Of a stretch of DNA of 64,000 nucleotides, positions 34,360 to 34,677 are shown piece after piece. The stretch comes from a phage: NCBI GenBank assembly GCA_031520405.1, contig GCA_031520405.1_4842.1, one strand, 5' to 3'. The notes beneath the pieces were generated by a model that saw only the letters and a program-made list of their open reading frames with translations, was not told the origin of the DNA and did not search any database. The first letter of the stretch is position 1, and every line of letters starts with the position of its first letter. The translations under genes and the position numbers were made by a program.

Positions 34360-34677
34360 ATGCTTATGTCAAACAAACCAACTTATGTTGAAGTAATGCG
34401 TGTTCTGGCTCAGTACGCTTGTGACAACCTGAACATGGAAACTTGGCGCAACGGGGATCACAAGGACAAGTTTGATAACATTGATGATAATATCGATGCT
34501 TTAGCGCCGTTACGGGTTAAGAATGATCTCGGCGGTGACGATCTTGACATGATTGAGCTGGTCATGGAAATCGAAGAAGAGTACGATGTAGAAATTAGTG
34601 ACGAGTGGGTGGGTAAACATGGAGATGATCCTACCCTCGGAGAGTTAGCTGAACTCGTCGTTGCCCTGCGCAAGTAA
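34360..34677 (+). CDS. acyl carrier protein-like protein with Asp replacing the phosphopantetheinylated Ser
   Basis: [27 protein letters not shown] aligns to ACP [27 protein letters not shown]; Ser of DSL is Asp (codon GAT). Confidence 0.6.
   Translation: [105 protein letters not shown]

Follow-up and report, generated by a model that had tools for sequence, protein, structure and literature searches.

A serine-less ACP-like gene in a Kuttervirus genome

The DNA analyzed in this work is a 64,000-nucleotide (nt) stretch of a phage genome (contig GCA_031520405.1_4842.1 of the GenBank assembly GCA_031520405.1), referred to below as the window. Its plus strand carries, at positions 34360 to 34677, a small gene whose product has the fold of an acyl carrier protein (ACP) without the Ser residue to which 4′-phosphopantetheine is attached in such proteins. 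The segment 33800-35200 around this gene is 99.9% identical to the genome of Escherichia phage vB_EcoM_JN03, 98 to 99% identical to several Salmonella Kuttervirus genomes, and, across 80% of its length, 99.6% identical to the genome of CBA120 (Ackermannviridae, Kuttervirus). Judging from these identities, the source of the window is a member of the genus Kuttervirus in the family Ackermannviridae. In CBA120, the counterpart of the gene is orf142 (gp112), which is labeled “acyl carrier protein” in RefSeq and is flanked by orf143, encoding a hypothetical protein of 738 amino acids (aa), and by orf141.

The open reading frame (ORF) delimited in the original prediction, which was made from the sequence alone, is present in the window, and its translation gives the same 105 aa. 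However, the start codon assumed there, ATG 34360, is likely to be two codons too early: the homologs open with MSxKPTY, and CBA120 orf142 is 312 nt long, which makes the second in-frame ATG, at 34366, the probable start codon, with a product of 103 aa. The residue numbers used below are those of the 105-aa translation. The gene had also been viewed as part of an island, whereas it is a conserved Ackermannviridae gene inside a syntenic block. Its product has a pI of 4.16 and a net charge of −16, as compared with a computed net charge of −15 and a similar pI, about 4.1, for AcpP, the type II ACP of Escherichia coli. The homolog from phage Sajous1, gp186, has been seen once by mass spectrometry, and gp185, the product of the neighboring VWA domain-encoding gene, was seen in the same proteome (PMC10892097). 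A literature search, which left out most subscription journals, found no paper on the missing Ser or on the function of this gene; it returned only annotation labels and that one mass spectrometry entry, in agreement with the original view that the function is apparently uncharacterized.

Membership in the PP-binding superfamily

The ACP fold and the helix II signature claimed in the original prediction are borne out by profile searches and structure prediction, the checks that it had set beforehand. The Pfam PP-binding family (PF00550) matches the protein with 30.7 bits, above its gathering cutoff of 20.8 (E = 3.7e-7), in residues 56 to 100 only, and PHROG 4154, annotated as “acyl carrier protein,” matches residues 3 to 105 along positions 1 to 108 of its 108 (E = 1e-56). 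A profile built from 21 family members matches ∼110 solved ACP chains in PDB, with E values down to 1.5e-7; in these alignments, the family motif DLGGDELD lies opposite DLGADSLD of the Plasmodium and Bacillus ACPs, with Asp or Glu facing the Ser. The AlphaFold2 model of the protein, built on the family alignment, has a predicted local distance difference test (pLDDT) score of 88.8 and a predicted template modeling score of 0.81. The best 50 matches of this model in a Foldseek search of PDB are all ACPs, with probabilities of 0.98 to 1.0; the top ones have a probability of 1.0 and target TM scores of 0.65 to 0.82.

The ACP models of NCBIfam (TIGR00517, NF002148 to NF002151, and others) give a different picture. 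All 12 matches fall under the models' own cutoffs, scoring 37 to 40 bits where 66 to 106 are required; the best scores are 40.5 bits against 71 for NF002148 and 37.5 bits against 70.45 for TIGR00517. Thus, the protein belongs to the PP-binding superfamily by its fold and by the Pfam threshold but lies outside the functional ACP family, because the defining Ser, when looked for, is absent and the scores stay below the cutoffs of the curated equivalog models.

Loss of the phosphopantetheine attachment site

As originally proposed, the residue equivalent to the phosphopantetheine-bearing Ser36 of E. coli AcpP is Asp61, encoded by GAT. A sequencing error or a strain-specific mutation at this codon can be rejected, since Asp or Glu is encoded in all 26 gene copies compared at the DNA level (GAT in 12, GAA in 10, GAC in 2, and GAG in 2), with the family found in 271 phage records. 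The conservation of Asp, a point raised in the original prediction, holds for an acidic residue but not for Asp specifically: 20 close homologs have either GGDDL or GGDEL at this site, and all family proteins recovered, including divergent short forms and sequences with as little as ∼25 to 35% identity, have Asp or Glu there and never Ser. None of the residues that lie one nucleotide away from the acidic codons (Asn, His, Tyr, Ala, Gly, Val, Lys, and Gln) occurs even once at this position, which points to a constraint acting on the acidic side chain, beyond the mere loss of Ser.

Nor does the family offer a substitute for the lost residue. The window protein contains just two Ser residues, S4 and S80, neither of them conserved; the family alignment has no conserved alternative Ser and no conserved Ser, Thr, or Cys near the N terminus of helix II. 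With the Ser absent from every relative, the protein should therefore be unable to carry fatty acids, and the original statement that it is not a conventional acyl carrier stands. On the sequence evidence, 4′-phosphopantetheine cannot be attached at the canonical site.

A conserved docking surface in a variable protein

The part of the protein most similar to E. coli AcpP is the segment that comprises helix II, the following loop, and the start of helix III, i.e., the region of the ACP “recognition helix.” Identity there is 14 to 15 of 23 residues (∼60 to 65%) versus 6 of 52 (∼12%) elsewhere; the motif of the AcpP sequence used in this comparison is consistent with the PDB alignments. The residues D60, L62, D63, E66, M69, E72, E73, I79, and D81 are invariant in close homologs, and the equivalents of AcpP residues D35, D38, E41, E47, E48, and D56 are all kept in the phage protein. 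In the alignment, D60, E66, E72, and E73 correspond to the AcpS-contacting residues D35, E41, E47, and E48 of AcpP. Charge-neutralizing mutations at D35, E41, and E47/E48 of the E. coli ACP block its modification by AcpS in vivo (bioRxiv 10.1101/2025.01.28.635281). Because the conserved acidic residues match these recognition positions, the family has preserved the ACP docking surface and lost the cofactor site.

The differences from AcpP, apart from the change of Ser36 to Asp or Glu, include ∼25 extra residues in the N-terminal extension, loop I, and a family-specific motif. The N-terminal extension, helix I, and loop I make up the fast-evolving part of the protein. The insertion of ∼20 residues that had been placed before helix II has the length originally given, but some of these residues form a short extension of the N terminus and the others lengthen loop I, in which three short helices are predicted. 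The family-specific motif, W-x-G-x-x-GDDPT between helices III and IV, is a feature additional to the original observation. Its residues W83, G85, D89, D90, P91, and T92 vary little or not at all. Neither canonical ACPs nor the short-form relatives, including those of Serratia phage phiMAM1, Erwinia phage vB_EamM-Bue1, and the metagenomic contig L082, have this motif. In the AlphaFold2 model, residue 92 forms a β-bridge with residue 51, beside the start of helix II.

Distribution and selection

A tblastn search found the gene in 271 phage records, and those listed are genomes of ∼120 to 160 kb from phages of Salmonella, Klebsiella, Escherichia, Dickeya, Shigella, Enterobacter, Serratia, and Yersinia. 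All records that were inspected belong to Ackermannviridae. About ten further clusters of full-length relatives, with 35 to 50% identity, came from an exhaustive HMMER search of 1.84 billion representatives; all of them have Asp or Glu at the Ser site. Shorter relatives, closer to the canonical ACP length and without the long loop and the GDDPT motif, also occur. The relative from phiMAM1 (“DDLWFDELDRIE”) still has the acidic residue. In Bue1 (MG973030.1), an uncalled 99-aa ORF located right after the VWA gene (L079:6316-6615) codes for a short-form family member (“HFAMDELDYIEFIMELEDD”) with the motif HFAMDELDYIE, again with Asp or Glu at the Ser site; a third short relative, with the motif DLLMDDMDVIE, comes from an Ackermannviridae-like contig from a food metagenome.

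The ratio of nonsynonymous to synonymous substitution rates (dN/dS), calculated by the Nei-Gojobori method, is 0.05 to 0.24 in all pairs with unsaturated synonymous divergence, which shows that the gene is under purifying selection. A spurious or noncoding ORF is ruled out by these values, together with the full-length PHROG match and the detection by mass spectrometry. Comparison of the window gene with the copy in locus L006 gives a dN of 0.037 and a dS of 1.24.

The VWA protein evolves far more slowly, with 71 to 82% identity where the ACP-like proteins have 33 to 42%. When locus L016:3710-6327 is compared with positions 32070-34677 of the window, the VWA genes are 98.5% identical and the adjoining ACP-like alleles only 62% identical, so that a recombination junction falls between the two genes. 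Two types of ACP-like alleles, with GGDDLDM and GGDELDA motifs, are exchanged among Kutterviruses.

Gene neighborhood and transcription

The features of the locus are listed in Table 1. The gene upstream of the ACP-like gene codes for a protein whose N-terminal domain, of the VWA type, contains a complete metal ion-dependent adhesion site (MIDAS). Among 120 homologs with 32 to 98% identity, the MIDAS residues (D36-x-S38-x-S40, T109, and D139) have a conservation of 95% or more. Its AlphaFold2 model has a pLDDT of 86.9, and Foldseek matches over the first ∼400 residues include VWA and β-sandwich proteins (4fx5, the archaeal ArnB 8s05, and Sec23/24), whereas the C-terminal ∼350 residues lie outside the matches to known folds. 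A sequence search of PDB with this protein gave a single weak match, to 8s05 (E = 0.14). Its homologs are also encoded in Straboviridae (Miro, GAP161, CfP1, and Thanatos), Bacillus jumbo phage AR9, Rhizobium phages, and contigs of up to 458 kb.

Table 1. Features of the ACP-like gene and its surroundings in the window
Feature	Position	Strand	Basis and remarks
VWA-domain ORF, 750 aa (probably 738 aa from ATG 32106), with N-terminal VWA domain and complete MIDAS	32070..34322	+	Pfam VWA, 30.6 bits (cutoff, 23.8); PHROG 2426
Terminator-like GC-rich hairpin GGCGGGGAAACCCGCC and, after it, TTCATTTTGA, within the 37 nt that separate the VWA and ACP-like genes	34331..34346	+	Consensus scan, sequence
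ACP-like (pseudo-ACP) gene, 105 aa from ATG 34360	34360..34677	+	Homolog of CBA120 orf142 and of the ViI “acyl carrier protein”
N-terminal extension, helix I, and enlarged loop I (∼20 residues more than in E. coli AcpP)	34366..34524	+	Alignments; AlphaFold2 helices 9-23, 27-31, 35-39, and 45-48
Helix II, loop, and start of helix III (residues 56-82); ACP “recognition helix” region	34525..34605	+	Alignment to E. coli AcpP
Asp61 codon (GAT), equivalent of E. coli AcpP Ser36	34540..34542	+	Alignments to E. coli, Plasmodium, and Bacillus ACPs
Family-specific motif W83-x-G85-x-x-G88-D-D-P-T92 between helices III and IV (residues 83-92)	34606..34635	+	Alignment
Hairpin with T-run, then promoter-like TTTACT-17-TATTAT (34721-34749)	34684..34754	+	Direct repeat D1, inverted repeat I2

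In most of the Ackermannviridae lineages checked, an ACP-like gene is located directly 3′ of the VWA gene; this is the case in Kuttervirus, Limestonevirus, and Taipeivirus-like phages, in CRW-SP2 and Bue1, and in the metagenomic contigs L073, L077, and L082. The two genes are on the same strand, 37 to 50 nt apart. In phiMAM1, three genes lie between them, and the VWA homologs with 47 to 67% identity in the Straboviridae phages Miro and Thanatos-2 and in an Aeromonas-type clade are followed by genes unrelated to ACP.

Since the 37-nt gap has no room for a separate promoter, transcription must reach the ACP-like gene by read-through from upstream, and we infer that it is cotranscribed with the VWA gene. 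The unit of hairpin, T-run, and promoter-like site that follows the ACP-like gene probably marks the end of this transcription unit. No T4 late-promoter motif (TATAAATA) was found near the ACP-like gene, and the literature search found no Ackermannviridae transcriptome.

The 71-nt cassette that contains this unit is duplicated in the window: the copies at 34684-34754 and 35040-35110 are 356 nt apart and 93% identical, and they flank a 76-aa ORF (34799-35029) that belongs to PHROG 22629, a family with no function annotated. CBA120 and PM10 are without this segment (80% query coverage, in two pieces), which resembles a small insertion of the moron type, placed between terminator/promoter units that have been duplicated. 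Farther downstream, a 168-aa ORF (35456-35962) has no Pfam match; its match to PHROG 832, “RNA polymerase ADP-ribosylase” (E = 1e-15), is confined to the last ∼155 of the 1480 positions of that profile. The CBA120 homolog is annotated as an ADP-ribosylase in RefSeq, but this ORF is a short relative the size of a fragment.

On the other side, a gene for 5-hydroxymethyldeoxyuridine (5-hmdU) DNA kinase (26018-27244; Pfam HMUDK_hel, 285 bits) lies ∼7 kb upstream of the VWA/ACP-like pair, on the same strand. This enzyme is the kinase of the thymidine hypermodification pathway. No evidence for a link of the gene pair to thymidine hypermodification was found: the literature search returned nothing on it, and VWA homologs also occur in Straboviridae, whose members with such homologs are not known to carry this modification.

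Possible functions of the pseudo-ACP

The product of this gene is a “pseudo-ACP,” a descendant of an acyl carrier protein that has kept the four-helix fold and the acidic surface of helix II. It can be expected to act purely by protein-protein binding through this helix. Host proteins that recognize helix II of ACP and neighboring phage proteins had both been proposed as partners in the original prediction, and both are plausible. The partner that we favor, with somewhat less than even confidence and on the pattern of conservation, is the host: the pseudo-ACP may be a decoy for host proteins that dock ACP. During infection, it would occupy the basic ACP-docking sites of AcpP-binding proteins, with AcpS, the enzymes of fatty acid, phospholipid, and lipid A synthesis, and the nonenzymatic partners SpoT, MukB, and IscS as candidate clients. 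Binding without the delivery of an acyl chain could then block or retune the respective host process, and the acidic side chain of residue 61 may mimic the holo-ACP phosphodiester. A more specific version is put forward with somewhat less confidence: the Asp/Glu residue may be a built-in mimic of the holo-ACP phosphodiester in a host takeover factor that displaces AcpP from SpoT, MukBEF, or IscS or jams AcpS or lipid synthesis enzymes, or may instead plug the metal site of the VWA MIDAS.

A host decoy is favored because the docking helix has been kept while the rest of the protein drifts and because the fast, mosaic evolution of the nondocking parts fits a host interaction gene. Fast evolution combined with allele mosaicism is a common pattern for such genes, and there are certainly host proteins that have docking sites for ACP. 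Keating, Carey, and Cronan reportedly described unmodified ACP, in J Biol Chem in 1995, as a potent growth inhibitor in E. coli. In addition, no phosphopantetheinyl transferase, acyltransferase, or synthase is annotated in the RefSeq record of CBA120, where most genes are “hypothetical,” so that CBA120 has no annotated enzyme in need of a carrier.

Several considerations weigh against a host decoy. AcpP is extremely abundant in the host, and a stoichiometric decoy would need either high expression or a far higher affinity. The conservation of helix II is in part structural and common to all ACPs, so it is no proof of binding to host clients. Acidic residues stabilize the first turn of a helix, and Asp or Glu may simply be the most helix-stabilizing replacement in the first turn of helix II rather than a phosphate mimic. 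The W-x-G-x-x-GDDPT motif and the N-terminal helix suggest an interface foreign to the host AcpP, and the conserved place of the gene beside the VWA/MIDAS gene is just as compatible with a partner from the phage.

Such a partner would be the phage's own 750-aa VWA protein, with the pseudo-ACP as its accessory subunit, ligand, or regulator and with a carboxylate, possibly that of the Asp/Glu at the old Ser site, completing the MIDAS. In integrin-type VWA domains, the MIDAS metal binds an acidic ligand residue; here, the MIDAS residues are almost invariant among the VWA homologs, and the pseudo-ACP exposes a strictly acidic residue at the N terminus of helix II. The close spacing of the two genes on the same strand, which leaves no room for a promoter, also fits this possibility, as does their adjacency even where the ACP-like proteins are only ∼25 to 35% identical (as in three divergent metagenomic lineages) and the presence of both gp185 and gp186 in the Sajous1 proteome. 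However, the whole block is syntenic in these phages, which makes adjacency weak evidence, and the association is broken by the three intervening genes in phiMAM1 and by the Miro, Thanatos-2, and Aeromonas-type VWA homologs that have no ACP-like neighbor. A terminator-like hairpin separates the genes, the pairing of nearly identical VWA proteins with 62% identical ACP-like alleles gives no sign of coevolution outside helix II, and no fold known from ACP-docking enzymes is seen in the VWA model. Taken together, a VWA partner is the main rival to a host decoy and only a little less likely. A generic acidic mimic, unrelated to ACP biology, in which the ACP fold would serve as a stable acidic scaffold for a nucleic acid mimic, an anti-restriction or anti-defense protein, or a binder of some other phage protein, is much less likely than either. 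The low pI and high negative charge of this small protein, its fast evolution and allelic mosaicism, and the location of its gene, which has genes of early/middle type around it and lies close to an Alt-like ADP-ribosyltransferase homolog and superinfection exclusion genes, would all be in keeping with such a mimic. E. coli AcpP is, however, equally charged, so the acidity is inherited rather than new; conservation is specific to the ACP docking helix, not to overall charge; and neither the ACP-like nor the VWA protein has a match in PADLOC, and the literature search found no link to anti-defense. Likewise, the high negative charge shared with Ocr-type acidic DNA mimics does not discriminate, given the charge of −15 of AcpP itself.

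Two further explanations are very improbable. A true carrier, modified at a noncanonical residue or bearing some other prosthetic group, would account for the passing of the Pfam PP-binding threshold and for the “acyl carrier protein” label in many GenBank and RefSeq records. Host enzymes would, however, find no Ser to modify, because its position is taken by Asp or Glu, and phosphopantetheinylation of either residue is not known; the lack of a conserved Ser, Thr, or Cys near the N terminus of helix II, the nonconserved nature of both Ser residues of the window protein, the NCBIfam scores far below the cutoffs, and the absence of annotated phosphopantetheinyl transferases or acyl enzymes in CBA120 also speak against it. 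A functionless, decaying remnant of a captured host ACP gene, which the loss of the key catalytic residue might suggest, is effectively refuted by the low dN/dS ratios, the intact ORF in all those phage records, the restriction of the replacement to Asp and Glu through all four acidic codons, the gain of a family-specific motif, and the detection of a peptide.

Comparison with other ACP-like proteins

The closest functional precedent is the mitochondrial ACP of Plasmodium falciparum. In that protein, the Ser is reportedly replaced by the hydrophobic Phe, and the LYR protein Isd11 is said to be its partner, whereas the replacement in the phage protein is strictly acidic and the setting is that of a bacteriophage. 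The Plasmodium protein lacks the Ser and yet has been retained, serving the Fe-S cluster machinery as a binding subunit (PMC8547962); like the phage protein, it keeps the ACP fold without the phosphopantetheine Ser. The features by which such a Ser-less ACP is recognized, i.e., a retained fold, a lost Ser, and a gene under selection, are all found in the phage family.

The structural-subunit ACPs, such as NDUFAB1/ACPM of complex I and E. coli AcpP bound to human NFS1-ISD11, are among the matches of the phage protein (6gcs, 7a23, 8tvt, and 5wkp) and illustrate that this fold often serves as an adaptor. They keep the Ser, with the acyl-phosphopantetheine arm in the interface, which the phage protein cannot do. 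The toxicity of apo-ACP in E. coli offers an example of an ACP without acyl carriage acting as an inhibitor in vivo by occupying enzymes that depend on ACP, with glycerol-3-phosphate acyltransferase as the reported target in the study by Keating, Carey, and Cronan; there, however, the inhibitor is the host's own protein, artificially overproduced, whereas the phage version is diverged, genetically fixed, and nonmodifiable.

Small ORFs with the ACP fold have been noted in other phages, such as Caulobacter phage phiCbK, Olleya phage Harreka_1, and Achromobacter phage Motura (PHROG 5934). Among the viral ACP ORFs recovered with the helix II pattern, most (∼40) keep the DSL motif and could be real carriers, while several unrelated viral contigs (L021, L056/57, L058, L059, L063, and L068) have Asp, Glu, Ala, or Tyr at the Ser site. 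Against this background, the Ackermannviridae family is a separate, uniformly Ser-less lineage of phage ACP-like proteins. A weak ACP-like fold match (probability, 0.66; rank 20) was also seen for BFVD entry C9DG88, an 81-aa protein of Delftia phage PhiW-14, another phage with hypermodified thymidine. Finally, many metagenomic ACP-like proteins (P0082, P0096, P0103, P0107, P0114-P0116, P0129, P0142, P0143, P0153, P0154, and P0158) have N termini that resemble signal peptides or lipoprotein signals and the pattern G-A-D-[DE]-L-D in place of DSL; this list is biased in that the query profile itself carries Asp or Glu. Their sequences suggest a separate, possibly exported, Ser-less ACP-like group, probably bacterial.

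Implications

The repurposing of ACP-fold proteins as binding modules is already known; the case described here is a conserved Ser-less look-alike that is characteristic of Ackermannviridae. The label “acyl carrier protein” in many of the phage records listed is a systematic misannotation, which implies a metabolic function that is impossible for this protein. ACP is among the most connected bacterial proteins, serving fatty acid, phospholipid, lipid A, biotin, and lipoate synthesis and binding SpoT, MukB, and IscS. The conservation of a noncarrying copy of it across a phage family in wide use against Salmonella, E. coli O157, Klebsiella, and Dickeya suggests a mechanism of host manipulation or a phage complex. 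As a decoy, the protein could expose the ACP interaction at which the enterobacterial cell is vulnerable. As a ligand of the VWA MIDAS, it would provide the first handle on a 750-aa protein that is conserved in Ackermannviridae, T4-like, and jumbo phages. Either as a host takeover factor or as a MIDAS plug, it would be the first described viral ACP mimic and would represent a new class of phage effectors built on the ACP fold.

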